Shown: positions 532 to 58,460 of the stretch, piece after piece
Layout: each line of letters starts with the position of its first letter
Position numbering within the stretch: position 1 is the stretch's first letter
Assembly (NCBI GenBank): GCA_963705355.1
Contig: OY970070.1
Location: forward strand, 1,906,960-1,970,959
Source of the DNA: an uncultured Thermoplasmata archaeon
Lineage (GTDB): Archaea > Thermoplasmatota > Thermoplasmata > UBA10834
Direction of reading: 5' to 3'
Length of the DNA: 64,000 nucleotides
Program-made: the position numbers and the translations under genes
The notes under the pieces: model-generated
What the model saw: the letters and a program-made list of their open reading frames with translations, nothing else
Told to the model about the DNA's origin: nothing
The model's database searches: none

Positions 532-1968
532 TCAGTCCTCATACTTTTCCAAGATGCAGTTAATCTGCTTCTGGGTCTGCTTGTCCACCTGTTCCGGGAT
601 ATGCGACGAAATGATCTTCTTCGCTCTGTCTTTCGCCCTCTCGACCATGTCCTTCCTGGACTTGTCCAGACGATAGAATGCGAGATTGTCAGTCTTGTCC
701 TGACTCTGAATGAAGAGTTCCTTCCTCATGTTCCTCGCGGTGTGCATCTCCTTCAGGAAGCTGCCTCCGGGACCGACCTTCCTCACAAGATCGACTGCGA
801 AATGCTCGTCATCAAAGGCAACATCTCTTCGCAATTCCCGAACGTTTTCCCAGAGGTCGCAATCGATTATGATCTGCTCCAGCGACGCGCCCAACGCCTG
901 ATCGAGCCCGCCGATTCCCGATGCGAAATCTGTCAGAGCCAGAGACGTGAGGCTCGTGAACAAGAGTTCCGCCGGATCGAAATACACTCCTGGCGATTCT
1001 CCGCCGAGCCCGACCCCGAAACCGCCGACCATCGTGGAAGCGCCGTAGTACTTTGCCATCTGTGCGGCCGCGCTCGCGATCAAAGCCTCTTCGACAGCAC
1101 CGTAGTGTATCTCTCCCGTCCTCATGTTCGGCGAGGTCGATTCCGAGCTGTATACGACGGGCGCTCCAGCCTTTGTTATCTGGGATATTGCGAAGCTAGC
1201 GAGATTCTCCGCATTCACGATCGCTATTGTGGAAGCTAGGGTGACGGGAGATGTGAGCCCTGTCAGAGCCATCGACATCGAGACGACTGGTATCCCAGCG
1301 CTCGCGAATTCCATCAGGGCTTCGACCGAGCCCTTCTCGAACTCCAGCGGGCAAATGGGACACTGGACCACCGAGAACAAAGGCCTCTTGGCAAGCGCAT
1401 CCTCTCCGCCGGCGATTGCTGCGGCAACCTCGACTTCCGCTCTCGCCTCCTCCGCAGACATAGCCTCTCCTTGGACATGCTTGGTCGTGTTCAGAAGGGA
1501 AATCGTGAGTTCGCTCAAGGCATGGGTTCTGTCCGGAGCGTCATGCGCAGTAACGATCGGCCAGACATAATCGAGCGGATCCATCGCGTCGCAGAGTACC
1601 ATGAAATCCTTGAGATCCTTGCCCAGCGTGGTGTGCTTCTCCCCGGTCTCGAGATCGGTCATGTAGACGGCGGTGCCGTTCGTCGCCATATATGGTGGTC
1701 CAGTCTTCGGAGCTAGCATGTCTTGTTTCGGATTCCTCGCGCAAAGATTCACGGTCTTCGGAAGCTTTTTCACAGTCTCCTTGACCAAGCTTTCTGGAAT
1801 GCTAGCATGCATGCCCTTTCTGTCTATCTTTGCCCCGCCGCTCTCAAGCATCTTGAGCGCTCTCTCGCTTCGAACCATCACGCCTGGGTTCTCCAATATG
1901 CGCAGCGTCTTTTTGTGAACAAGTTCTATGTCACTCTTCGACAGAATGCTTATCTGGGCTACCGCCAT
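532..1968 (-). CDS. trimethylamine/quaternary-amine methyltransferase MttB-superfamily protein (non-pyrrolysine type)
   Basis: 478 aa. Length and conserved blocks are typical of the MttB family (VVQCPICPLEF..., GGFGVGLGGESPGVYFDP). The ORF is uninterrupted, with no in-frame TAG. Confidence 0.7.
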   Translation of the reverse strand: MAVAQISILSKSDIELVHKKTLRILENPGVMVRSERALKMLESGGAKIDRKGMHASIPESLVKETVKKLPKTVNLCARNPKQDMLAPKTGPPYMATNGTAVYMTDLETGEKHTTLGKDLKDFMVLCDAMDPLDYVWPIVTAHDAPDRTHALSELTISLLNTTKHVQGEAMSAEEARAEVEVAAAIAGGEDALAKRPLFSVVQCPICPLEFEKGSVEALMEFASAGIPVVSMSMALTGLTSPVTLASTIAIVNAENLASFAISQITKAGAPVVYSSESTSPNMRTGEIHYGAVEEALIASAAAQMAKYYGASTMVGGFGVGLGGESPGVYFDPAELLFTSLTSLALTDFASGIGGLDQALGASLEQIIIDCDLWENVRELRRDVAFDDEHFAVDLVRKVGPGGSFLKEMHTARNMRKELFIQSQDKTDNLAFYRLDKSRKDMVERAKDRAKKIISSHIPEQVDKQTQKQINCILEKYED

Positions 1969-34092: not shown

Positions 34093-35109
34093 TCACGCGA
34101 GCCTTTCCGGGCACGCTTCTCTTCGGGAGCAGTTCCTGCACTTGCCCGGCCTCTCATGGTTCCTGTGCGCGTTCCCAGTCTCCATGGTCTTCCGCATCTC
34201 ACCCAGCTTCTCCAGGAGCACTTTCTTGAGATCCTCATTGAACTCGATCTCGTGCTCGTGCTCCGGATACCTGATGATTCCGTAAGGCGGAGCCTTGCCC
34301 GTGCTCTCCTCGATAAGCAGAGAGTACGCCGCGACCTGAAGGATGTGCGAGAACAACGGCCCTCGCGGAGTCCTGCCGGTCTTAACCTCGACAGGGATCA
34401 GGTTCTGGTTTGCCTTGATCACGTAGTCCGGTCTTCCCGATAGACCGTACTTCTCGGACTTGAAGACCTTCGATTCGCCCATGTCGATATACTCTATCTT
34501 CCCTCGGACACTGTATTCTTTCTTCAGGGACTCGACGATGCCGGTAGATCTCAGAGTCCTGTACATGAAAAACGACGCCCCCACCAGCCATATGATCGCA
34601 GTCGCCTCCAGCGCCTCAGCAAGCCTGACATCTGTTATCAGGAACGCGACGGCGTTGACGGCGATGAGCACTGCTATGATCGCGAAAGTGAGAATGAGTT
34701 TCTCGTAGTTCACAACGCTGCTGTGAATTGTCGACTTCGTTGCCCTGTACAAGAAGTAAGTTGCTGCGAGCATCCAGATTAGCGCAACCACACCGAGCAC
34801 TTGACTGAGGGTCAGCGAGTTCTTCGTGGGAAGAACATCCAGCCCGACAATGGAGATGAGGGTGGCCACGACTGCCCACCAGAAAACAAGCCTCTCCGAC
34901 TCCCGGGCGGTCTTCTCGCCCGAGTCGATCTTCCAAAGGGATTTGCCGAGCTTTTCGTGACCCTTGATTCCCTCCGCGAGCTCCTGGGTCTCCCCTTCGA
35001 AATCCTGGCTCAGCCACCAGCTCAGGGGGCAATAGCTGTACTTCTCGAGATCCCCGGCCGAGATGAACTTGCTCGGGCCACGCGCCATGCGTGAAATTAC
35101 AATTGTCAA
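34093..35109 (-). CDS. Cas4-like PD-(D/E)XK nuclease with Fe-S Cys cluster, interrupted by about 4 TM helices (membrane-embedded)
   Basis: N-terminal YCPLSWW (Cas4/DUF83 first Cys). Core GRPDYVI, PVEVKTG (ExK), HILQVAAYSLL (QxxxY), PPYGIIRY. C-terminal CRNCSRREAC. Four hydrophobic helices lie between the N-terminal Cys and the nuclease core. Confidence 0.55.
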   Translation of the reverse strand: MTIVISRMARGPSKFISAGDLEKYSYCPLSWWLSQDFEGETQELAEGIKGHEKLGKSLWKIDSGEKTARESERLVFWWAVVATLISIVGLDVLPTKNSLTLSQVLGVVALIWMLAATYFLYRATKSTIHSSVVNYEKLILTFAIIAVLIAVNAVAFLITDVRLAEALEATAIIWLVGASFFMYRTLRSTGIVESLKKEYSVRGKIEYIDMGESKVFKSEKYGLSGRPDYVIKANQNLIPVEVKTGRTPRGPLFSHILQVAAYSLLIEESTGKAPPYGIIRYPEHEHEIEFNEDLKKVLLEKLGEMRKTMETGNAHRNHERPGKCRNCSRREACPERLA

Positions 35110-48471: not shown

Positions 48472-50949
48472 CTATGCTATATAGGCTTGTCGGCGAGTCA
48501 GTGCGTTTCTTGGCGCAAAACGCGAATTTGCCTTTTTTCTGGGGTTCTTGGAGCTGAAAAGCTCGGAGAGCTTCTCTATATTGTATCCGAAAGGAAGGAG
48601 CATGCCCTCTGCTCCTCGCAGAAGTAGATCGACATAAGCATCCATATCGTACGCCTCATCTCCCGAGATGAACGAATCGACCTTCACTCGCTTGCGCGGG
48701 TCCTTGCTCTTGCAGTCGCATATCAAGAACCTCACGGCCTCTCCCGGGTTCACGTCAAAACCCTCGTCGTCCAGCTGCATGAGGGCTGCGACGCGGTCGT
48801 TGAACTGCTGATAGGCCCCGAGTCCCTGTGACACCCGCTTGGTCATCAGCAGCTTGCTCAGCGGAACCGCTTGAGACCTGACGGTCTCGACATAATCGTT
48901 CACGATGTCCAGCGCGGACGGTATGAGTTCTATGAACTGCTGCGAATCGTCCGCCTTTGAGAAGTTCGCGAGCAGCTCGTTCTGCATGTCCTTCACCAGC
49001 TCCGTCGTGTCGTGCTTCCTGAGCTCGATCCCGCGCAGTTTCAACTTCCCGTCCTCGAACATACCATAGTATCTGTTCAGAACGCCGACGCCGTTCGACC
49101 TGTGCGGCAGAAACACTATCCACTTGTATATCCCCTCCGGCTCGAGCGGGATGCCTATGTGGCCAGACACATGCTCGCAGAACTTCTCTGGATCGCCGTT
49201 CCCTTTCAGCCAGAGCGAATCCACGATTCCGTGGAGTATCTCGAACCCGTGCGCCTCTGCCATCTCGGACGCCTGCAGCATTATCTCCCTTCCGTACGCG
49301 TTGATGGCCTCGTGGCATTCTATTCTCCCGAACCTCGCGTTCCTGTAGCCCGTGTATCCGAAGCAGTTGTGCGTGAGCACCCCGTTGGCGAGCGCGAACC
49401 CGTGCAGCGGTTCGTCCACTCCGAGACAGTAGACATGGTCTCCAGACGGCCTGATTCTGCGCACGGACATCACGCGCATGTGGGTTATCGAGTTGCCGGA
49501 GCTGGATGCGCTGCTGTAGAGAGGCATGAGCGCTGGGAGCAGGCTTCCCTCTGTAACCCTGTCAGCTCTCTTCAGCACGAGCCGGTCCCCGTTCATGACA
49601 TAGCACGGATGGTCTGGTGTCAGTCTGATCCTGCTCTCTGCGAGGTTCAGCTCGATCATGTGCTCAGGTGCCGGGAACTTGAAGACCTTCGAGACGGTCT
49701 TCAGCGAAGGCTCCAGATTCCGGTCCAGCCCGAACGCCTCGAGCTTGTCATTGACCGTGCACTCGTCAGAATCTCCGCGAACATACCTCTCAACGATCTC
49801 GCCGACGGTGCGGACATCGAACCTTCCGCGCCTTCTGAACGGTATTTCGGTGTCAGAGTCCAGGCAGGTCACGAGCAACCATTTCAGAATGTCTACCCTC
49901 TCCTTGTAGAGCTTCGTATCCCCTATCCCGGCCTTCACCATCCTCTTGAGTCTCGTCCTGCGCTCCACCACGGGTTTGAGCACGCGCGGTATCAGTCCCA
50001 GTCGTTTGTCACATATGCCATATCCAAGAACAGGCACCCGTCTGGTGGGCTCGGGACAACAAGAGCATGTGACCGTCTCAGGCGAGATGTTGAACCTCAC
50101 CATGATGTTCGGATACAGCGATGTGAAATCCACTTCCAGAACGCGGTCGTGTATCCCGACCGCGGGCTCGTAGATGAAACCTCCGCGGTCTGATATGACG
50201 AGCTCCTCCGCGGTCTTGAACTTCTCCGGGAGGTTCTTCTTCCACATTATGACGCAGCCATCTTTGAGCGCGAGATTGGCCTGCATCGCGCTGATCGCGC
50301 TCCCAGGAGAGAGCCTCGCAAGTTCCTGGACGGGCACGCCAGATATGCGAGAGAGATCGGTCAGGCCGCCCAGGCCGCTCTCCATGAACATGAATGAGCT
50401 TGAGCGATCGATGTGGATCCTCCCGCGGAACTTGTACGATGGGGGCTTGTACTTGATCTGCCCGTATGTGAAGTATGATTTGCCCTTCCGGTCGGTCCTC
50501 TGGTCGTCGACGTCCCTACCCAACATGATCCCCTTGAGGCCGACATGCCTCGCCCGCTGGTACAGGTACGGGATGAGGAAGGCGTCTCCGTTGTCTGTGT
50601 AGATCACATCTGGATCCCCAGCTTTGACGATCTCTTGGATCCCTTCGAGGATAGTCTCCTCGTCACCGTCTACAACTTCGTCCCCTACTTTGGCAGAGAT
50701 CAGCTTGTCATCGAAAGTCGGTATTCCCTTCTTGGCTTCCGGCACAGCGCTTAGCTCAATTCCAGAGAGCGGAGGCATCTCGTAATCGATTTCGTACGGA
50801 TCGTCTATCATCCGCGGCCTCGGTCTGAACTCCAGCAGGCCCATGGGAAAGATGCTCTTCTCGCAGAAGTACCGCTGGCTGAATCTCAGATCGACAGTTG
50901 AACAACGTGTAATCTTTGTACCTTCCGCGATTGTCGATAGTATGCGCAA
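48472..50949 (-). CDS. family-B DNA polymerase homolog with disrupted catalytic motifs (inactivated PolB type), containing a mini-intein
   Basis: Motif A DFTSLYPNIM is intact. Motif B reads KWLLVT|CFGYTGY (the Asn of KxxxNSxYG is replaced). Motif C reads HGIVDS (first Asp of DTD lost). Exo I reads SGIELS (D to G). Exo II reads NGDAFLIPYL (D to L). The N-terminal domain lies in another frame (next feature). Confidence 0.7.
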   Translation of the reverse strand: MRILSTIAEGTKITRCSTVDLRFSQRYFCEKSIFPMGLLEFRPRPRMIDDPYEIDYEMPPLSGIELSAVPEAKKGIPTFDDKLISAKVGDEVVDGDEETILEGIQEIVKAGDPDVIYTDNGDAFLIPYLYQRARHVGLKGIMLGRDVDDQRTDRKGKSYFTYGQIKYKPPSYKFRGRIHIDRSSSFMFMESGLGGLTDLSRISGVPVQELARLSPGSAISAMQANLALKDGCVIMWKKNLPEKFKTAEELVISDRGGFIYEPAVGIHDRVLEVDFTSLYPNIMVRFNISPETVTCSCCPEPTRRVPVLGYGICDKRLGLIPRVLKPVVERRTRLKRMVKAGIGDTKLYKERVDILKWLLVTCLDSDTEIPFRRRGRFDVRTVGEIVERYVRGDSDECTVNDKLEAFGLDRNLEPSLKTVSKVFKFPAPEHMIELNLAESRIRLTPDHPCYVMNGDRLVLKRADRVTEGSLLPALMPLYSSASSSGNSITHMRVMSVRRIRPSGDHVYCLGVDEPLHGFALANGVLTHNCFGYTGYRNARFGRIECHEAINAYGREIMLQASEMAEAHGFEILHGIVDSLWLKGNGDPEKFCEHVSGHIGIPLEPEGIYKWIVFLPHRSNGVGVLNRYYGMFEDGKLKLRGIELRKHDTTELVKDMQNELLANFSKADDSQQFIELIPSALDIVNDYVETVRSQAVPLSKLLMTKRVSQGLGAYQQFNDRVAALMQLDDEGFDVNPGEAVRFLICDCKSKDPRKRVKVDSFISGDEAYDMDAYVDLLLRGAEGMLLPFGYNIEKLSELFSSKNPRKKANSRFAPRNALTRRQAYIA
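49366..49866 (-). mobile_element. mini-intein (about 167 aa, Hint domain only) inserted in PolB motif B
   Basis: It begins CLDSDTEIP after ...WLLVT. Block B is TPDHPCYV. It ends ...GVLTHN followed by Cys+1 (CFGYTGY). No LAGLIDADG or HNH endonuclease insert. Confidence 0.7.
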
Positions 50950-51229
50950 CGTCCTCGACTTTCGCGTAGTCTCTTATCGTGATCCCGAGCACTTCGCGTT
51001 CGTCATCTCCGAGCCATGTCCGTTTCATCTCCCGCCCGGTCGCGCTCACTTCGTCTAGAATCGGAAGCGCTCTCTCGAGATCGTCGAGGTTTTCGGGAGT
51101 GGAGTGCACGAATATCTTCGGGCGGAACGCCCGATCTACGATCTTGTTCGCGCCCTTTCGGGTTCTTACCCAGTATACGATGGAGTTTGTCTCGTACTCT
51201 GGGTAAATGTCGAGGAGCCAGCCTCTCAT
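50756..51229 (-). CDS. PolB N-terminal domain fragment in a different frame (apparent frameshift with downstream PolB ORF)
   Basis: MRGWLLDIYPEYETNSIVYWVRTRKG...FRPKIFVH matches the PolB N-terminal domain (LDIDY...IRLF...F.PYFY). The main ORF resumes with the RYLIDKGLIPM-equivalent (RYFCEKSIFPMG) in another frame. The overlap is 50756-50949. Confidence 0.5.
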   Translation of the reverse strand: MRGWLLDIYPEYETNSIVYWVRTRKGANKIVDRAFRPKIFVHSTPENLDDLERALPILDEVSATGREMKRTWLGDDEREVLGITIRDYAKVEDVAHTIDNRGRYKDYTLFNCRSEIQPAVLLREEHLSHGPAGVQTEAADDRRSVRNRLRDASALWN

Positions 51230-51516
51230 CTTTTGGACTCACTGCTCCCGATTCCCCCATCCTGGATTCCGTTGCTTTCATTCTCTTCTTTGAGATTCTT
51301 TTTCAGAGCTAGTATCTCCTTCTCGTGTTCCAGGAGCATCGAGAGAAGGGCCGACTCTGTTGGGTCGAGGCTTATCGCGTATGTCGATGCGGAAGCGTGC
51401 ATGCGCGCCCTGGTCACCAGAGAATCGAATGCTTCCCGGTCTCCACTCCTGAGCGCTCTCCGAAAATCGTTCCACTGCTGGGTCATCGCCTCAAGGGCCA
51501 AGCGGTATGTAGGCAC
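51226..51516 (-). CDS. small hypothetical protein (operonic with PolB)
   Basis: 96 aa. It overlaps its neighbours by 4 and 26 nt. No known motif. Confidence 0.3.
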   Translation of the reverse strand: MPTYRLALEAMTQQWNDFRRALRSGDREAFDSLVTRARMHASASTYAISLDPTESALLSMLLEHEKEILALKKNLKEENESNGIQDGGIGSSESKR

Positions 51517-52270
51517 CGTTCTTCCCGTCGGAATCCCCCCTGAACTCGTCTAGCGTTGCTTGGTTCCAAGGCACGGGCGAGAACACGATCTCCCGCTCCG
51601 CCCTCGGCAGCCGGAAGAGCAAGCCATCTCTTCTGGTGCGCATCTGAACGATCTGGTCCGAGTGTTCGTACAGCAATGCTGCCAGTTTCGGGCTTGGACG
51701 GACCTGCTGATGAGTGTTGTTCGTGAGCATGGAGATAGTCTCGTGCTCCTTCGTCACCCTGGATATGTCCTCTAGACACCTCCTCAGGAGCTGGTGTGAT
51801 TCCATCCACTTCATGTCCTTGTCGAGGAACATCTCGGTTATGGATGACACTATGACGGCGCACGGCGAGCTTCTCTCGACCTGTTCCTCGAGCTTCTCGT
51901 CGATCAGAGTCACGAGCTGATACGCAGTGAACGCCCTGGACACGTTCACGCGCGACAGGATCTCCCGCTTGTTTAGCCTCAGTCGCTTGCACAGAGAGCT
52001 GATGGCATATGGATCGATGGCATTCCCGCCGTCTATCCAGACGACCTCCTCGTCGAATTGCGAGATCGCGCGGACGCAGAGCAGGTGCAAAAGGCTGGAG
52101 GCGTAGCTGCTGTCGCTGTCGAGCAGCGCGACCTGGGCTGAACGGAAGCCGCCTATGAGCTCGTCTAGCTGCAGGATCGAGGTTTCCAGAACCCTCTCAT
52201 GGAGCAGCGGCTCCTCGCCGACTATCTGCACCAGCGGTTGTTCGAGCGCTGCTGTTCTCTGGATCTGCAA
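51491..52270 (-). CDS. RadA/RadB-like RecA-fold paralog with Walker A and B ablated (inactivated recombinase-like)
   Basis: It aligns with RadA/RadB blocks: LDELIGGF, VVWIDGGNAIDP, VSRAF (RadA VARAF), LTNNTHQQV (VTNQV). Walker A GxxGxGKT is replaced by LLDSDSSYASS. The Walker B Asp is Ser (AVIVSSIT). Confidence 0.55.
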   Translation of the reverse strand: MQIQRTAALEQPLVQIVGEEPLLHERVLETSILQLDELIGGFRSAQVALLDSDSSYASSLLHLLCVRAISQFDEEVVWIDGGNAIDPYAISSLCKRLRLNKREILSRVNVSRAFTAYQLVTLIDEKLEEQVERSSPCAVIVSSITEMFLDKDMKWMESHQLLRRCLEDISRVTKEHETISMLTNNTHQQVRPSPKLAALLYEHSDQIVQMRTRRDGLLFRLPRAEREIVFSPVPWNQATLDEFRGDSDGKNGAYIPLGP

Positions 52271-52474
52271 GCAGTGTCACCAGCATCGCATTATCGGTCG
52301 TTCTGGAGTTAAACGGCTGCAGGGGGGAGCATGGTGAAACTAGTGAACCCGATAAAATCCAGCAAGTCCAATCGCACGCGAAACAGCGCACGGAAGCCCG
52401 TCTTTCTGTGGAAACGGTGTGTTAATGTTTAAGTACACTAAGGGTGTTTTTCACTCAACTATTCCAGAGGATCG

Positions 52475-55363
52475 TTGAGATTCATCGGGAAGGGACAGAG
52501 GAAAATGGCTTCCAGATCATCTTCCAGAAAGCAAACACCACCGTCGAGGCCCCCGCCGACTCAGAGGACCTACGCGGCGCAAATAGAATCCACAGAGGTG
52601 AAGAGGTCGCGCAAGGCCGCCATACTTCAGCTCAAGATGGGCCGGCTAGCACACACGATAGGCATCGCATCCGGCCTCGCGCTAGCACTGACGGCCATAA
52701 TCGCGTACGGCATCATCAACTGGGAATTCCTCCGGAATGCTCCCGATATATTCGCCACTCTGAAATGGATAATTCCGCTAGTCGCAGGCGTGGTAGTCGC
52801 TGCGGTCGCACTCGCGATCAAATGGGAACCGTATTTCACGGACAGGGAGGAGCCGCACTTCGCGATGAGCATCGTCGCGCTCGTGGCTCCTGCCTTCATC
52901 ATAGCGCTCATAGTCCTGGACGAGTACGACTACGTGCAGCTCGGCAGGCCTGCTTGGCTCTATCCTGCCTCTCTCCTGGGGATATGTCTCACAGAGATAT
53001 CGCTCGCGATGACTTGGGAGGGTTCGAGTCCTCGCCGGACCGTCAGCATCGTCTCTGCGATCTTCCCGATTGTCCTGCTCGTATTCCCCATGGTCTACCG
53101 CTTCACGCCCGAGGAATTAGCCAGCACTCTTCCGATGGCATATCTCGGCAGCGCGGTCGCGATCCAGCTCAGCGGCTCGATGCTGCACATCATTGCGAGC
53201 TCGACATCTGTGCAGCAGCGAGAGGTTCTCAAGGCGAGCGACAGCAAACTGCGCGAGGAGCTCCAGGAACTCGAAAAGAAGCGGCACGCGCTGATATACA
53301 GAGAGGACGCGCTAAGATCCAAGGAGTCCGACCTCGAGACCCTTGAGAAGCGGCTCAGCGATGAGACGGCTTCGATAGAGGAAAGGAAGACCCAGGTAGC
53401 CGCGGCCGAGGCGGAGGCGGAGCAGCGTTTCCTGCAGTTGCGCGATGAGAGACAGAAAACCGCGAAGCAGCAGGCGGAGATAGAGGATGCCAAAGAGGCC
53501 CTGAAGCTGAGGCAATCCGATCTAGAGGCTCAGAGAAGGGAGCTGGAGAAGCGCTCCAAGGCGCTGCTCACGAAGGAAGAAGCTGTCTCCACTAGGGAGA
53601 GGGACGCCAACAGGATATTGATCGATGCTCAGGCCAAGGAGCGGGACATAAGGAACAGGCTCTCCGAGGTCGAGGCGGAAGAGAAGGCTCTCGATACCAT
53701 GCGCCAGGAGATCGACGAGCTTCAAGGGGCACTTGCGGACCGCGAGAAACAAGTGGGCGTCCGAGAGAGCGCGCTGGACATGAAGGTTCTGGAGATTGCG
53801 GCAGCGAGGGAAGAGCTTGGGACGGTTGCCAAAGAGAAGACTTCTGTCAAGACCCTCGAGCAGCAGTTGCTGATGAGGCAGGAGTCTCTCGCAGAAAAGG
53901 AAATCGCTCTTAAGACGTCTGAGGACGAGCTGCGTAAGAAATCCGAGCGTGCTGAGAGGCTGATTGCGAGAGCCGACAAGCAGATGAACGAGCTCATCGA
54001 GAAGGAGAACACACTCTTGGCTCGCGAAAAGACTGTCACCGACAATGAGTCCCAGCTGAGGGCGGAGGTCGAAGGCTTGAACGCCAAGCTGGAGGAGATG
54101 CAGAGCGCGCGTGAGTCGGTCACCGACAGGGAGAAGGAGTATCACAGTCTAACCGAGACCACCAGAACAAGACTCTCAACAGTGACATCTCAAGAGGAGG
54201 AGATCGTAAGGAAGATGGCCGCTCTCGAGCGAAGGGAGGAGAAGATCCGGGAGCTCGAGACGAGGCTCAGAACCGAGCACGACACGATGAGCTCCAAACT
54301 GAGGGAGATGCTCGAGAAGGAGAAGGATCTCAGCGCCCACGAAGACGAGATGAACCTGCGCTATGCGGAGCTCAAGGCGATGGAACGAGGGGTTCTGGAG
54401 AGCGTGGACGAGGTCGAGGCGGCCAGGACGTCCTTCGAGGTGCCAGAGGAGGGCGAACAGACTAAGACCTTGGCCTACAGAGAGAGGCGTTTGATTGAGA
54501 AAGAGCAGGAGATGAAGTCGCGGCTCTACCAGCGCGAGAAGGAGCTGGAGGCGCGCGAGCAGTCCCTGCGCGCGCATCTGAAGAAAGACATCGAGGGGAT
54601 GGAAGAGGCCGTCGAGAAGGAGTACGCTGAGGAGAAGGTCAAGACGGGAATAGAACGTCTGGACGCCCTGCTCATGGGCGGCATGCCCTTCGGGTCCAAC
54701 ATCACGTACGTCGGACCGCCATTCATAGGAAAGGAGACCGCCATCCTGTTGTTCTTGGCCGAGGGCCTCAAGAAGGGCATTCCAGCAGTGATTGTGACAA
54801 CCTCAAAATCCCCCGAAGAGATCTCCAAGGATATGGCGCCGATACTACCTACGTTCAAGGAATTCGAGCAGCTCGGTCTCGTGAACTGGGTAGACGCCAC
54901 CGGACTTCAGAGAGCCCCGAGCGCGAGAACTGGAAAACCCAGTCTCATTGCAGCGTTGGGCTCGGGAGATCTGGGCGGGATCGGCAAGGCGATCGACGGA
55001 TGCGTTAACAAGATACAGAAGCAGAGGCACCCATACTTCAGGTTCGCCTACATGTCTCTCTCGATGAGCGTGACGCAGTCGAACGAGAAGGACTCGTTCC
55101 AGTTCGTGCAGACCTTGGTCGGCAAGCTGCGGCAGGCCAACGCGATTTCGGTCTTTGCGCTCGAGCGCGGGATGCACACGGAGCAGCAGCTCGAGTCGAT
55201 TCAGCATCACATGACCGGCGCGATCCAGTTCAAAACGGACAAGCAGAAGACTCTGATAAGCGTCCAGGGCGTAGGCGATGCGCAGACCAGGGACTGGATC
55301 GAGTACAAGCACACGAACAGGGCCCTCATGATCGGAGCATTTTCACTTGAGAGGATAAGGTAG
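52475..55363 (+). CDS. membrane-anchored long coiled-coil protein with C-terminal KaiC/RadA-like domain (degenerate P-loop)
   Basis: About 6 N-terminal TM helices. About 520 aa of heptad-rich coiled coil (E/K/R/L-rich). The C-terminal domain has LDALLMGGMPFGSNITYVGPPFIGKETAILLFLAEGLKKGIPAVIVT (compare KaiC GPPGTGKT). The Walker B position lacks Asp (VFALERG). Confidence 0.65.
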   Translation: MRFIGKGQRKMASRSSSRKQTPPSRPPPTQRTYAAQIESTEVKRSRKAAILQLKMGRLAHTIGIASGLALALTAIIAYGIINWEFLRNAPDIFATLKWIIPLVAGVVVAAVALAIKWEPYFTDREEPHFAMSIVALVAPAFIIALIVLDEYDYVQLGRPAWLYPASLLGICLTEISLAMTWEGSSPRRTVSIVSAIFPIVLLVFPMVYRFTPEELASTLPMAYLGSAVAIQLSGSMLHIIASSTSVQQREVLKASDSKLREELQELEKKRHALIYREDALRSKESDLETLEKRLSDETASIEERKTQVAAAEAEAEQRFLQLRDERQKTAKQQAEIEDAKEALKLRQSDLEAQRRELEKRSKALLTKEEAVSTRERDANRILIDAQAKERDIRNRLSEVEAEEKALDTMRQEIDELQGALADREKQVGVRESALDMKVLEIAAAREELGTVAKEKTSVKTLEQQLLMRQESLAEKEIALKTSEDELRKKSERAERLIARADKQMNELIEKENTLLAREKTVTDNESQLRAEVEGLNAKLEEMQSARESVTDREKEYHSLTETTRTRLSTVTSQEEEIVRKMAALERREEKIRELETRLRTEHDTMSSKLREMLEKEKDLSAHEDEMNLRYAELKAMERGVLESVDEVEAARTSFEVPEEGEQTKTLAYRERRLIEKEQEMKSRLYQREKELEAREQSLRAHLKKDIEGMEEAVEKEYAEEKVKTGIERLDALLMGGMPFGSNITYVGPPFIGKETAILLFLAEGLKKGIPAVIVTTSKSPEEISKDMAPILPTFKEFEQLGLVNWVDATGLQRAPSARTGKPSLIAALGSGDLGGIGKAIDGCVNKIQKQRHPYFRFAYMSLSMSVTQSNEKDSFQFVQTLVGKLRQANAISVFALERGMHTEQQLESIQHHMTGAIQFKTDKQKTLISVQGVGDAQTRDWIEYKHTNRALMIGAFSLERIR

Positions 55364-55815: not shown

Positions 55816-56319
55816 CTATTGTGACCCCACAGGAACCGGTTTTCTAGCCCTGTAATTAACTGACAACCAGCGAGCTGCAATGGGAACCGAAATCCCCAAG
55901 ACGAGCGTGCCATATTGCATGATGCTGATGCTTGAGTTGGTTCCTGTCCCCATCGCGAAGACGAACCCCCCTGCGGTAAGAACGAGGCCAAGGATGTATT
56001 CATTCGTACCGTGTTTCTCCTCGTCCTTCACATACAGAGGTTTCGATATGAACCACACACCTACCCACATGAAGAAAGTGCAAGCACCCACGAATCCAAT
56101 CGTGAGTTCTCGGTCAAATAGCGCAGCAACCAGCTTGCTCTGTCCAAACAAGGCGAGAACAACTCCAATCAAGAAGACTGCCACATACACTGGTCTCCTG
56201 AGGACTAGTTCCTTTCCTCGCTTCTCAAGGTCGAGCAAGACAAGCGCGAGTACCACTCCCATCAAGACGCCTGTAACCGCAGCGTCGTACAGGTCTTTCA
56301 GCAGCATTACTTCGTCCAT
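55816..56319 (-). CDS. polytopic membrane protein, hypothetical
   Basis: 167 aa with 4-5 TM helices. Confidence 0.45.
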   Translation of the reverse strand: MDEVMLLKDLYDAAVTGVLMGVVLALVLLDLEKRGKELVLRRPVYVAVFLIGVVLALFGQSKLVAALFDRELTIGFVGACTFFMWVGVWFISKPLYVKDEEKHGTNEYILGLVLTAGGFVFAMGTGTNSSISIMQYGTLVLGISVPIAARWLSVNYRARKPVPVGSQ

Positions 56320-56570: not shown

Positions 56571-57131
56571 TTAGAGGAAGTACTTCGGCCCTGTACTCCA
56601 CGCGTAGAGTACCCCTTCGTCAATCACGAAATCGTAGCTTGTCCAATAAGAGTTGGGGCCTCCCCTCCATGTCACGGTCAGCATGTATGTTACTTCCTCC
56701 ACGAATCCTGAACCGTTCACGACCGAGATCACGAAGTAGTCCTCCTGGCCGAAAGCGCCGTCCCCTGTGATGTCGGTGAGATTCAGCGAGAGAGTGAGGT
56801 TGCCTGCGGTCCTAGTTCCAAGGTTCACCGTCGCGGAACGACCTGTGTTAAGCAACTGTGAGGCATTGAGTGCGTCCCAGCTGCTGCTTCCATTAGAAAA
56901 GCTTATCCAAGGAGCACCGTAATGGTACTGGACCAGGGCAGCGTTATCTCCCGTCCACTTGATACCTTCTGGGACAAGCGACAACGGAGTGTGTTCTGAT
57001 GGAAACTCAGGCTTGGAGAGTATCGTATACAAAGCGTAGGAGACCCCACTGGCAAGGATGCAAACACACAGTACGACCACTATGAAGATCCTTGGTCGTC
57101 GATGCGCGAATTGCCGAACCCTTTCCGTCAT
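56571..57131 (-). CDS. signal-anchored extracellular protein, hypothetical
   Basis: N-terminal TM anchor (IFIVVVLCVCILASGVSYALY), then a beta-rich domain with N-x-S/T sequons. The ORF opens at 57242 (TTG), and Met38 is the likelier start. Confidence 0.45.
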   Translation of the reverse strand: MTERVRQFAHRRPRIFIVVVLCVCILASGVSYALYTILSKPEFPSEHTPLSLVPEGIKWTGDNAALVQYHYGAPWISFSNGSSSWDALNASQLLNTGRSATVNLGTRTAGNLTLSLNLTDITGDGAFGQEDYFVISVVNGSGFVEEVTYMLTVTWRGGPNSYWTSYDFVIDEGVLYAWSTGPKYFL

Positions 57132-57251
57132 GGAGCCGCTAGCCACTCCTCCTAGAACGCATTGCCTGTTCCGTCTCATATAGCTTCGTCTCCCGATGAC
57201 GAAACGGTCAAGAACGAGTAAACAGCCCGAATAAACAACCAATAGAGCGAT

Positions 57252-57497: not shown

Positions 57498-58460
57498 ATG
57501 ATCCAGCTGGGCAACGGCATCCTGATCGAGGTTGATGGCTGCTCGTTCAGGTTCGATCCGAAGCGAGTTCTTCTCGGCGAGACGAGCATGATATCTCACG
57601 CCCACTCAGACCACCTTCCGAGTTCTTTCAAGCAGATGTCGGCGATATGTTCTCCTGTCACGAGAGATTTCATCAAGGCGCGGAGGAACAAGGAGATCGG
57701 GATAGACTCCGATGACCGTGTGAAGGAGCTTGAGGCCGGGCACATCGCGGGCTCGAGAATGTTCTTCGTTAGCGGGGACACGCGGGTCCTGTACACGGGC
57801 GATTTCTGCACGAGGGAGAAAGCAAACACAGAAGCAGCAAAGCCGCACAAATGCGACATCCTGATCACCGAGGCAACCTACGGCAAACCGCAGTACATCT
57901 TTCCAGACCACGAAGAGATCATGTCAGTCGCAAGGGATTGGGTGCGAGACATAGTGAAGAGGGATGGATGCGCAGTCCTCTTCGCTTATCCACTCGGAAA
58001 GTCACAGGAGCTCACGGCCTACTTCAGAGATCTTCCGTTGGTCCTTCACCCTGCGATTGCCGAGAACAACCGGATACTCAGGAGGCATGGCTACGAGCTC
58101 GCCCAGACGGAATTCGATGCTCATCGGACGAAGCCGCCGTTCGTGTACATCACGTCTGGATTGGGCAAGGACGCGCCTCGTGTGCAGTCGTTGAGAAAGC
58201 ACGGAGCCAAGACGGCAGCATTCTCAGGATGGGCATTGGAGAAGGGTTTCAGATACCAGTCCGGGGTCGACGAAGCGTTCCCGGTTTCGGACCATTGCGG
58301 TTTCGACGAACTCACGGAGTTCATCAGAAGGTGCAGTCCCCAAAACGTTTTCACGAATCACGGGTTCTCAAAAGAGTTGGCGATGCATGTGCGTCGCTCG
58401 CTGGGGATTCAGGCTCAGCCGTTGGTTGCCAGGCAGAGGACTTTGGATCACTTCTGCTGA
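57498..58460 (+). CDS. MBL-fold metallo-hydrolase (possibly beta-CASP-related)
   Basis: HAHSDH motif plus downstream His/Asp ligands. 320 aa. Confidence 0.65.
   Translation: MIQLGNGILIEVDGCSFRFDPKRVLLGETSMISHAHSDHLPSSFKQMSAICSPVTRDFIKARRNKEIGIDSDDRVKELEAGHIAGSRMFFVSGDTRVLYTGDFCTREKANTEAAKPHKCDILITEATYGKPQYIFPDHEEIMSVARDWVRDIVKRDGCAVLFAYPLGKSQELTAYFRDLPLVLHPAIAENNRILRRHGYELAQTEFDAHRTKPPFVYITSGLGKDAPRVQSLRKHGAKTAAFSGWALEKGFRYQSGVDEAFPVSDHCGFDELTEFIRRCSPQNVFTNHGFSKELAMHVRRSLGIQAQPLVARQRTLDHFC

Follow-up and report, generated by a model that had tools for sequence, protein, structure and literature searches.

The closest described counterpart of the locus studied here is the PolB2 operon, which has reportedly been known since 2013-14, with Makarova & Koonin (2013) as the earlier source. 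We analyzed a 64,000-nt stretch of DNA from an uncultured Thermoplasmata archaeon (assembly GCA_963705355.1, contig OY970070.1, positions 1,906,960 to 1,970,959 of the forward strand; hereafter the window), in which three minus-strand genes very probably make up such an operon, while a divergent gene for a KaiC-like membrane protein is probably a mere syntenic neighbor. Makarova et al. (2014, PMC4104785) reported a predicted operon of PolB2, arCOG07300 and an inactivated RadA that is conserved across archaea and also occurs in certain bacteria, and Timinskas et al. (2025, PMC11791011) renamed the two partners PPB2 and iRadA and catalogued 1823 operons. In the latter study, the three products were modeled as a heteropentamer, the ‘PolB2 mutasome’ (PolB2:iRadA:PPB2x3), in which the N-terminal ‘MGRT’ arm of PPB2 (Arg3, Arg9) lies in the cleft between PolB2 and iRadA, and a PolB2 loop ahead of an invariant D(K/R) binds iRadA in the style of a RadA oligomerization motif (PMC11791011). 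Gene order 1a is the commonest among these operons, and clamp-binding motifs occur in many of the complexes, not all, mostly at the C-terminus of iRadA (PMC11791011).

The Sulfolobus member of the polymerase group, Dpo2, is needed for damage-induced mutagenesis. It is damage-inducible and controlled by Orc1-2 (PMC6061795). When isolated from its native Sulfolobus host, Dpo2 incorporated nucleotides robustly, lacked proofreading and efficiently extended termini that were mismatched or paired with a lesion (Feng et al. 2022, PMC8764526). The exonuclease motifs of Dpo2 are lost and its motif C reads HxxxD, a form common to PolB2 enzymes in which the second motif C Asp is a metal ligand (PMC8764526).

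In the window, the open reading frame (ORF) map placed iRadA, PPB2 (arCOG07300) and PolB2 one after the other, in that order, on the minus strand. The features of this operon are as follows.

51491..52270, minus strand: iRadA, a RadA/Rad51 core paralog of 259 aa with a TTG start
51226..51528, minus strand: PPB2 (arCOG07300; Pfam DUF8156), a small helical PolB2 partner of 100 aa, translation verified
48472..51229, minus strand: polB2, a family B polymerase of the PolB2 group, 918 aa without an extra base and 751 aa after intein removal
49366..49866, minus strand: mini-intein of 167 aa without a homing endonuclease domain, in polB2 motif B between KWLLVT and CFGYTGY
50896..50896, minus strand: extra T (gene strand, TTCAAC(T)GTCGAT), which shifts the polB2 frame after codon 111
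52271..52360, minus strand: operon promoter and leader, conserved at the nucleotide level in an alignment of 25 loci

The order iRadA-PPB2-PolB2 on a single strand corresponds to group 1a and was identical in all relatives examined; the gene order and the overlaps were retained in more than 20 species, and in the window PPB2 overlaps the 3ʹ end of iRadA by 38 nt. iRadA matched Pfam Rad51 (8e-8) and NCBIfam RadA (6e-10). In the alignment to Pyrococcus furiosus Rad51/RadA (1pzn/4a6p), Walker A GEFGSGKT was replaced by LDSDSSYA and Walker B LIVDS by VIVSS, with Ser at the Asp position, and the N-terminal domain was missing, the alignment to 1pzn (P. furiosus Rad51) opening at chain residue 115. 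The C-terminus of iRadA carries a box like the PCNA-interacting peptide (PIP), PWNQATLDEF (Q237), followed by R. Relatives keep Qxx[LM]x[DE][FY], and a table of PMC11791011 gives a comparable motif, QSHLEAFG, for a Thermoplasmata iRadA. PPB2 was 46% identical (BLASTP, E 9e-18) to the Halovivax ruber arCOG07300 member from the 2014 supplement, an 86-aa call of the same gene has a precomputed match to PF26485 (DUF8156), and the N-terminal arm, xGRTVPTYR, is the MGRT motif with its Arg3 and Arg9.

The reconstructed PolB2 matched NCBIfam NF004416 and NF004418 over its full length (458 and 459 bits), and polB2 matched Pfam DNA_pol_B together with intein models. When PolB2 was aligned with Pyrococcus abyssi PolB (4flt), Exo II NFDF was found to be AFLI, Exo I had no DxE, motif B KILANSYYG was KWLLVTCFG(Y), and motif C YIDTDG was HGIVDS, that is, HxxxD; the motif A Asp (DFTSLYP) and the second motif C Asp were retained. 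PolB2 also contains FKTAEELVISDRGG, and FKTA....DRGG, an FxxA-like motif followed by D(K/R), was invariant in 20 relatives, as were the other PolB2 motifs. Judged by its position ahead of motif A and by its residues, FKTA..DRGG would be the published iRadA-binding motif.

The locus shares with the published PolB2 mutasome operon all three families and the commonest order 1a, the HxxxD motif C, the loss of the exonuclease motifs, the D(K/R) loop after an FxxA-like motif, the MGRT-type PPB2 arm, and an iRadA without N-domain or Walker motifs and with a candidate clamp-box-like motif at the C-terminus. It differs in the mini-intein within motif B, the one-base frameshift and the ACG at PPB2 position 1. 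Orc1/Cdc6, SRAP and DUF72, which are enriched neighbors of the operon elsewhere, were not seen adjoining it here, and none of them was found among the ORFs scanned, which covered part of the window's ORFs. Entries of the published data set include Thermoplasmata operons with an identical sequence from motif B to motif C (PMC11791011). The locus thus adds a member to the published system, and the operon itself is not new.

A preliminary description of the window, made from its letters, had proposed an operon of an inactivated RadA/RadB paralog, a small ORF and an inactivated PolB, and had considered the coupling of a dead PolB with a dead RadA and a membrane-tethered coiled-coil RecA-fold partner to be undescribed. 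Its observations were partly confirmed, and its interpretation was partly supported, in the folds and the operon. The coupling is evident in the ORF map and in the order kept by relatives, and profile searches matched the Rad51/RadA, DNA_pol_B and KaiC families that had been named (Pfam, NCBIfam). The alignments to solved structures reproduced the listed substitutions, which are no misalignment: iRadA has no Walker A and a Ser at the Walker B Asp, and PolB has lost the Exo I and II Asp residues, the motif B Asn and the first motif C Asp. The small ORF is present in the operon and proved longer than noted, being PPB2 that reaches 51528. The claim of novelty did not hold, since the operon had already been reported in PMC4104785 and modeled in PMC11791011. 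Nor did the label ‘inactivated PolB’: a Sulfolobus PolB2, Dpo2, with the same HxxxD and the same lost exonuclease motifs is a robust translesion extender (PMC8764526), which makes ‘dead PolB’ an unsafe conclusion. A working polymerase appears to fit the window's PolB2 better than a scaffold does, because the protein shares its catalytic make-up with Dpo2, is under strong purifying selection (the ratio of nonsynonymous to synonymous substitution rates, dN/dS, was ~0.1 against L009, the closest genome) and carries in its active-site region an intein that is predicted to be splice-competent; for this lineage, activity would be expected by analogy.

The mini-intein has Cys1 (CLDSD...), block B LTPDH, a terminal HN and a +1 Cys (...VLTHN/C), with verified coordinates, and it matched Pfam Intein_splicing as well as TIGR01445 and TIGR01443, the latter two above cut-offs. 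These are the residues of a class 1 mini-intein, and splicing is predicted from them. One relative (L030) has an intein-less allele, KWLLVT/CFGY, with the exact excision junction, and the nearest solved inteins were Pab PolC (2lcj) and cdc21. PolB2 was of intein-sized length in ~90 of the 101 closest homologs and intein-less in ~9 (725-732 aa); more distant PolB2s (53-56% identity) were of intein-less length. The intein thus seems to be nearly fixed in this Thermoplasmata clade, with few intein-less alleles. The papers on the PolB2 operon cited here make no mention of an intein in PolB2. Compared with the inteins of archaeal family B polymerases (pol-a, pol-b and pol-c sites of PolB3/PolB1), the present one likewise lies within a conserved polymerase motif and shows the class 1 residues (Cys1, TxxH, HN and +1 Cys), whereas its host is the PolB2 (translesion) paralog and it is a mini-intein without an endonuclease. 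In a PADLOC scan of all locus proteins, the PolB ORF alone gave a match, to a model labeled ‘homing endonuclease’, and a defense-system reading was dropped.

The conserved N-terminus of PPB2 (51528) lies upstream of any ATG, GTG or TTG start. Across 23 loci, the frame upstream of the annotated PPB2 starts encodes an invariant xGRTVPTYR(L)ALE while the overlapping iRadA tail varies freely, indicating that the PPB2 frame is the one under selection. Codon 1 was ACG in 13 of these loci (this one and 12 others), ATG in seven and TTG in three, and an SD-like (Shine-Dalgarno-like) G-rich run, GGGGGGAT, is found ~6 nt upstream of it. At L013, a stop codon immediately precedes the ACG on its 5ʹ side; at certain other ACG loci, an ATG or GTG is found instead, two to five codons farther upstream. 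Gene callers had shortened the annotated PPB2 to 83-91 aa (loci including L002-L043). Taken as they stand, the codons suggest non-AUG initiation of PPB2 within the 3ʹ end of iRadA (51516-51528, minus strand).

Approximately 90 nt upstream of iRadA were conserved among species whose proteins are only 50-60% identical. This segment comprises a TATA-like TTTTAT (52352-52357), ACTAGTTTCACC (52333-52344), the blocks CTCCCCCC and TTTAACTCC, and an SD-like GGTGA ahead of iRadA at 52277-52281, and in the 25 loci it was kept irrespective of whether the KaiC-like gene was adjacent. RNAalifold gave no consensus RNA structure for the conserved 100-nt iRadA leader in 20 species, and the conservation of the leader is therefore at the level of DNA motifs. 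Within the ACTAGTTTCACC box, TAGTTTCA is identical to the core of the Orc1-2 damage-response element of Sulfolobus (consensus AATAGTTTCRG; PMC6061795). The operon promoter is possibly damage-responsive by this likeness, which is suggestive only. No further copy of ACTAGTTTCACC or of the TATA-spacer-TTTCRC pattern was found in the window, leaving a regulon unsupported.

On the gene identities, motifs, intein, frameshift, synteny and separate promoters found here, a pathway can be sketched in which polymerase activity, complex formation, clamp binding and damage induction are taken by analogy from the described systems. The operon would be transcribed from its own conserved promoter, possibly in response to damage. 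The intein would splice out to leave an exonuclease-free family B PolB2 that may extend mismatched or lesion-paired primer ends. PolB2 would bind one iRadA through the FxxA-type FKTA ahead of the DRGG loop, mimicking RadA oligomerization, one N-terminal GRT arm of a PPB2 trimer would enter the PolB2/iRadA cleft, and the PIP-like box in the C-terminal tail of iRadA may bring the complex to the PCNA sliding clamp. The polB2 frameshift may interrupt this pathway in the present genome. Such a complex resembles the Escherichia coli Pol V mutasome (UmuD'2C-RecA-ATP) in that a translesion polymerase works with a subunit of the RecA family, a small accessory protein that forms oligomers, and a clamp motif (PMC11791011). 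It differs in that the E. coli enzyme is a family Y polymerase and PolB2 one of family B, the accessory proteins are non-homologous, and the RecA of Pol V is an active recombinase whereas iRadA is a dedicated inactive paralog.

The frameshift calls for separate consideration. PolB had initially been taken for a single gene, 48472-51229, but these 2758 nt are not a multiple of 3, and they hold two ORFs, 50756-51229 and 48472-50949, in two frames joined by the extra T at 50896. In DNA alignments, the T was absent from L002, L003, L004, L006, L009 and L011, and one relative without it is a metagenome scaffold 97.2% identical across the entire polB2 gene. The insertion was the sole frame-breaking indel in ~15 kb aligned to the 96%-identical L009, polB2 was intact in all 20 genomic relatives and in the database homologs among the matches listed, and dN/dS against L009 was ~0.1 on either side of 50896. 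For these reasons, either the extra T is an inactivating mutation of very recent date or it was introduced in error during assembly. Programmed +1 frameshifting was rejected: the site has neither a slippery nor a stop-codon context, the zero frame continues for 45 codons, and all relatives lack the base.

If the base is real, polB2 would be a fresh pseudogene in decay that yields a 157-aa N-terminal fragment and perhaps a truncated PolB2 from an internal start, an explanation to which we give somewhat less than an even chance. It gains from the position of the insertion outside any homopolymer, from its being the single frame-breaking indel in so long a coding stretch against close relatives, from the description of PolB2 as dispensable and patchily distributed (PMC4104785), and from three clade members that have no operon beside the KaiC-like gene. 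It loses from the absence of a second lesion in polB2, from the low dN/dS on both sides and the intact close homologs, and from the intact state of iRadA, PPB2, the intein splice residues and the promoter. In addition, the extra T is uncorroborated, the independent short-read contig L001 ending 25 nt short of the site, and exact-sequence look-ups of both frameshift products as called genes found neither on record.

Divergently from the operon, two plus-strand genes were of particular concern.

52505..55363, plus strand: KaiC-like membrane protein of 952 aa; Pfam KaiC (2.7e-12) and DUF7504, weak NCBIfam FlaH match
57498..58460, plus strand: beta-CASP/metallo-beta-lactamase nuclease-like gene of 320 aa, HAHSDH; Pfam RMMBL

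For the KaiC-like gene, ATG 52505 is the most likely start, giving a divergent spacer of 234 bp; an alternative TTG start at 52475 would extend the protein to 962 aa. A full-length AlphaFold2 (AF2) model was of low confidence (predicted local distance difference test, pLDDT, 62; predicted template modeling score, pTM, 0.31) and was used for secondary structure and the C-domain match only. In this model, ~six N-terminal helices extend to residue 233, long helices with three breaks occupy residues 235-709 (~475 aa), and an alpha/beta domain forms the C-terminus. The preliminary description had given 962 aa, six transmembrane (TM) helices, ~520 aa of coiled coil and a spacer of 204 bp; ~six hydrophobic helices are indeed present, whereas the long helices cover ~475 aa, the protein is likely of 952 aa, and the spacer is likely 234 bp. 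Its non-canonical P-loop and missing Walker B Asp were reproduced by alignment: the P-loop GTPGTGKT is GPPFIGKE, with Glu replacing the Walker A Ser/Thr, the catalytic Glu pair VTFEES is VTTSKS, and the Walker B region YMSLSMS has no Asp. Foldseek matched the C-domain to FlaH/ArlH (4yds), KaiC, PH0284 and SSO2452 at E ~1e-6, FlaH ranking narrowly ahead of KaiC.

There were 134 homologs of the KaiC-like protein, 120 of them at least 54% identical over the full length, coiled coil included. Among the homologs from the protein search, invariant blocks were found within the membrane domain, at GPPFIGKE and at the C-terminal ...GAFSLERIR. As GPPFIGKE was also one scan pattern for loci L009-L087, its invariance in those loci is not evidence, and that in the protein-search homologs is independent. 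The C-domain shares its fold and N-terminal sequence blocks with ArlH/FlaH (4yds), PH0284 (2dr3) and SSO2452 (2w0m). Unlike these proteins, the one in the window is fused to a ~six-helix membrane domain and ~475 aa of coiled coil, and unlike single-domain proteins of the KaiC family it has GPPFIGKE and neither the catalytic Glu pair nor the Walker B Asp. By its modeled fold the domain is a KaiC family member, by its substituted residues it is probably not an ATPase, and the family as a whole is conserved and uncharacterized in Thermoplasmatota. The gene has its own promoter (52395-52504, plus strand), in which a conserved block, AATGTTTAAGTA, precedes ATG 52505 by ~75 nt and an SD-like GGAAGGGA is present as well; both were found throughout the clade, even in members that lack the PolB2 operon.

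To measure linkage, one genome per species was scanned, which gave 79 loci: 35 of the close clade and 44 with more distant homologs (L044-L087; 29-39% identity). The 35 close-clade loci were syntenic, with TctA, the PolB2 operon, the KaiC-like gene, the 320-aa beta-CASP gene, Cbf5, cytidylate kinase, SecY and ribosomal proteins. In the 27 informative loci, the KaiC-like gene and the operon were divergent and 221-363 bp apart in 12 (this species included), separated by inserts of 1.3-6.6 kb in another 12, and in the remaining three no operon was present within 4.4-10 kb. PolB2, iRadA and PPB2 were not found within 10 kb of any of the 44 distant homologs, although a group 1a operon stands beside Methanomassiliicoccus entries in the published data set (PMC11791011). 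KaiC (PF06745) is outside the 20 commonest neighbors of the 1823 PolB2 operons (PMC11791011). Because synteny extends over everything between TctA and the ribosomal operon, linkage within the clade carries little information. The adjacency of the KaiC-like gene and the operon probably reflects inherited gene order, and the KaiC-like gene is most likely a separate transcription unit. The iRadA and PolB2 genes stay linked in the relatives examined, whereas the KaiC-like gene, which the preliminary description had made the third partner, is linked to them within one clade only.

The KaiC-like gene is tied more tightly to the beta-CASP gene than to the operon: in 26 of the 31 loci that were informative, the beta-CASP gene lies directly 3ʹ of it on the same strand, at a distance of no more than 110 nt. 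In the window, the two are 2.1 kb apart, with minus-strand ORFs of no known family (55816-56319 and 56571-57242) between them. The best NCBIfam match of the beta-CASP gene, over its full length, was TIGR04122, ‘ligase-associated DNA damage response exonuclease’ (5e-41), at 140 bits against a cut-off of 325. As for the distant homologs L044-L087, from Methanomassiliicoccales and other Thermoplasmata, they are shorter (~575-800 aa) and have no hydrophobic N-domain in a crude hydropathy scan. A 145-aa protein of no known family was present in 38 of these 44 loci, directly downstream and convergent where called.

We also considered whether the KaiC-like protein is a pseudo-ATPase scaffold of the ArlH/FlaH kind, serving a cell-envelope or type IV filament machine and having nothing to do with DNA, which we regard as unlikely. 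The membrane anchor and coiled coil recall the architecture of ArlX. The C-domain has FlaH 4yds as its best structural match, with the weak NCBIfam FlaH match beside it; T2SSE, T2SSF and a pilin-like gene were found near ~20 of the 44 distant homologs (Methanomassiliicoccales loci), and the only two distant homologs that bear the TM domain adjoin genes for a GDP-mannose dehydratase, an epimerase and a methyltransferase. However, the AF2 model is of low confidence, FlaH is ahead of KaiC by a narrow margin, and ArlH has a canonical ATP-binding Walker A that the window's protein does not. Neither the window nor any of the 35 close-clade loci yielded a T2SSE or T2SSF homolog, no ArlI/ArlJ genes are nearby in this clade, and the neighborhoods vary by lineage, each possibly plain synteny.

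Several observations weigh against a PolB2 mutasome operon that works as described and has an unrelated neighbor. PolB2 scores below the curated NCBIfam cut-offs (458/459 against 516/692 bits), the eighth and last aromatic position of the PIP-like box is not retained in iRadA, and in this genome the conserved N-terminus of PPB2 has no canonical start codon. With polB2 frameshifted, the operon may be non-functional in this strain, and polymerase activity in Thermoplasmatota would be an extrapolation from Sulfolobales. In 24 of the 27 informative species, no more than 7 kb separate the KaiC-like gene from the operon, and the gene that flanks it on its far side resembles an exonuclease of the DNA-damage response, so that a functional tie of the KaiC-like gene to the operon may exist in this lineage. 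In the strongest form of such a tie, the PolB2 operon, the pseudo-KaiC membrane protein and the beta-CASP gene would constitute a lineage-specific DNA-damage island, which we hold to be very improbable; the membrane protein would then draw either the translesion complex or the nuclease to the cell envelope, or sequester it there. Slightly less probable still is a dead-enzyme scaffold of iRadA, PolB2 and the KaiC-like protein that tethers DNA to the membrane and is expressed from a shared divergent control region: the degenerate catalytic motifs in all three proteins, the short divergent spacing in 12 species, the close linkage in the clade and the DNA-repair-type nuclease-like gene that follows would suit it, but a PolB2 with the same motifs is catalytically active (PMC8764526), the synteny deprives the linkage of its weight, 12 species have inserts between the genes and three lack the operon, the promoters are conserved separately regardless of adjacency, none of the 44 distant homologs is near a PolB2 operon, and KaiC is not enriched around the 1823 catalogued ones. 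Nothing found in the analysis supports the non-enzymatic membrane anchor for DNA that had been envisaged. These comparisons leave the PolB2 mutasome operon of order 1a, with the KaiC-like gene beside it through synteny, as the reading that we favor.

Elsewhere in the window, an Rfam scan found two tRNAs only. A Cas4-like PD-(D/E)XK nuclease ORF (34093-35109, minus strand) and an MttB-family methyltransferase ORF (532-1968, minus strand) were also noted, and both are unconnected to the PolB2 locus.

To present the locus as a new assembly of dead enzymes would re-announce, under an outdated label, a published system in which PolB2 is a translesion extender and not a dead enzyme. What is modestly new is the intein in PolB2, the ACG codon of PPB2, the conserved promoter, and the pseudo-KaiC family with its beta-CASP partner. 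The last of these is a well-conserved family of membrane coiled-coil proteins in Thermoplasmatota that is not demonstrably tied to DNA. The near-fixed intein, the non-canonical PPB2 start and the conserved promoter offer handles on how archaea restrain a mutagenic polymerase. A dependence of this clade's PolB2 on a fixed mini-intein within motif B, and of its PPB2 on an ACG start, is likelier than the DNA-damage island; if true, it would place the mutagenic polymerase under both post-translational and translational control.

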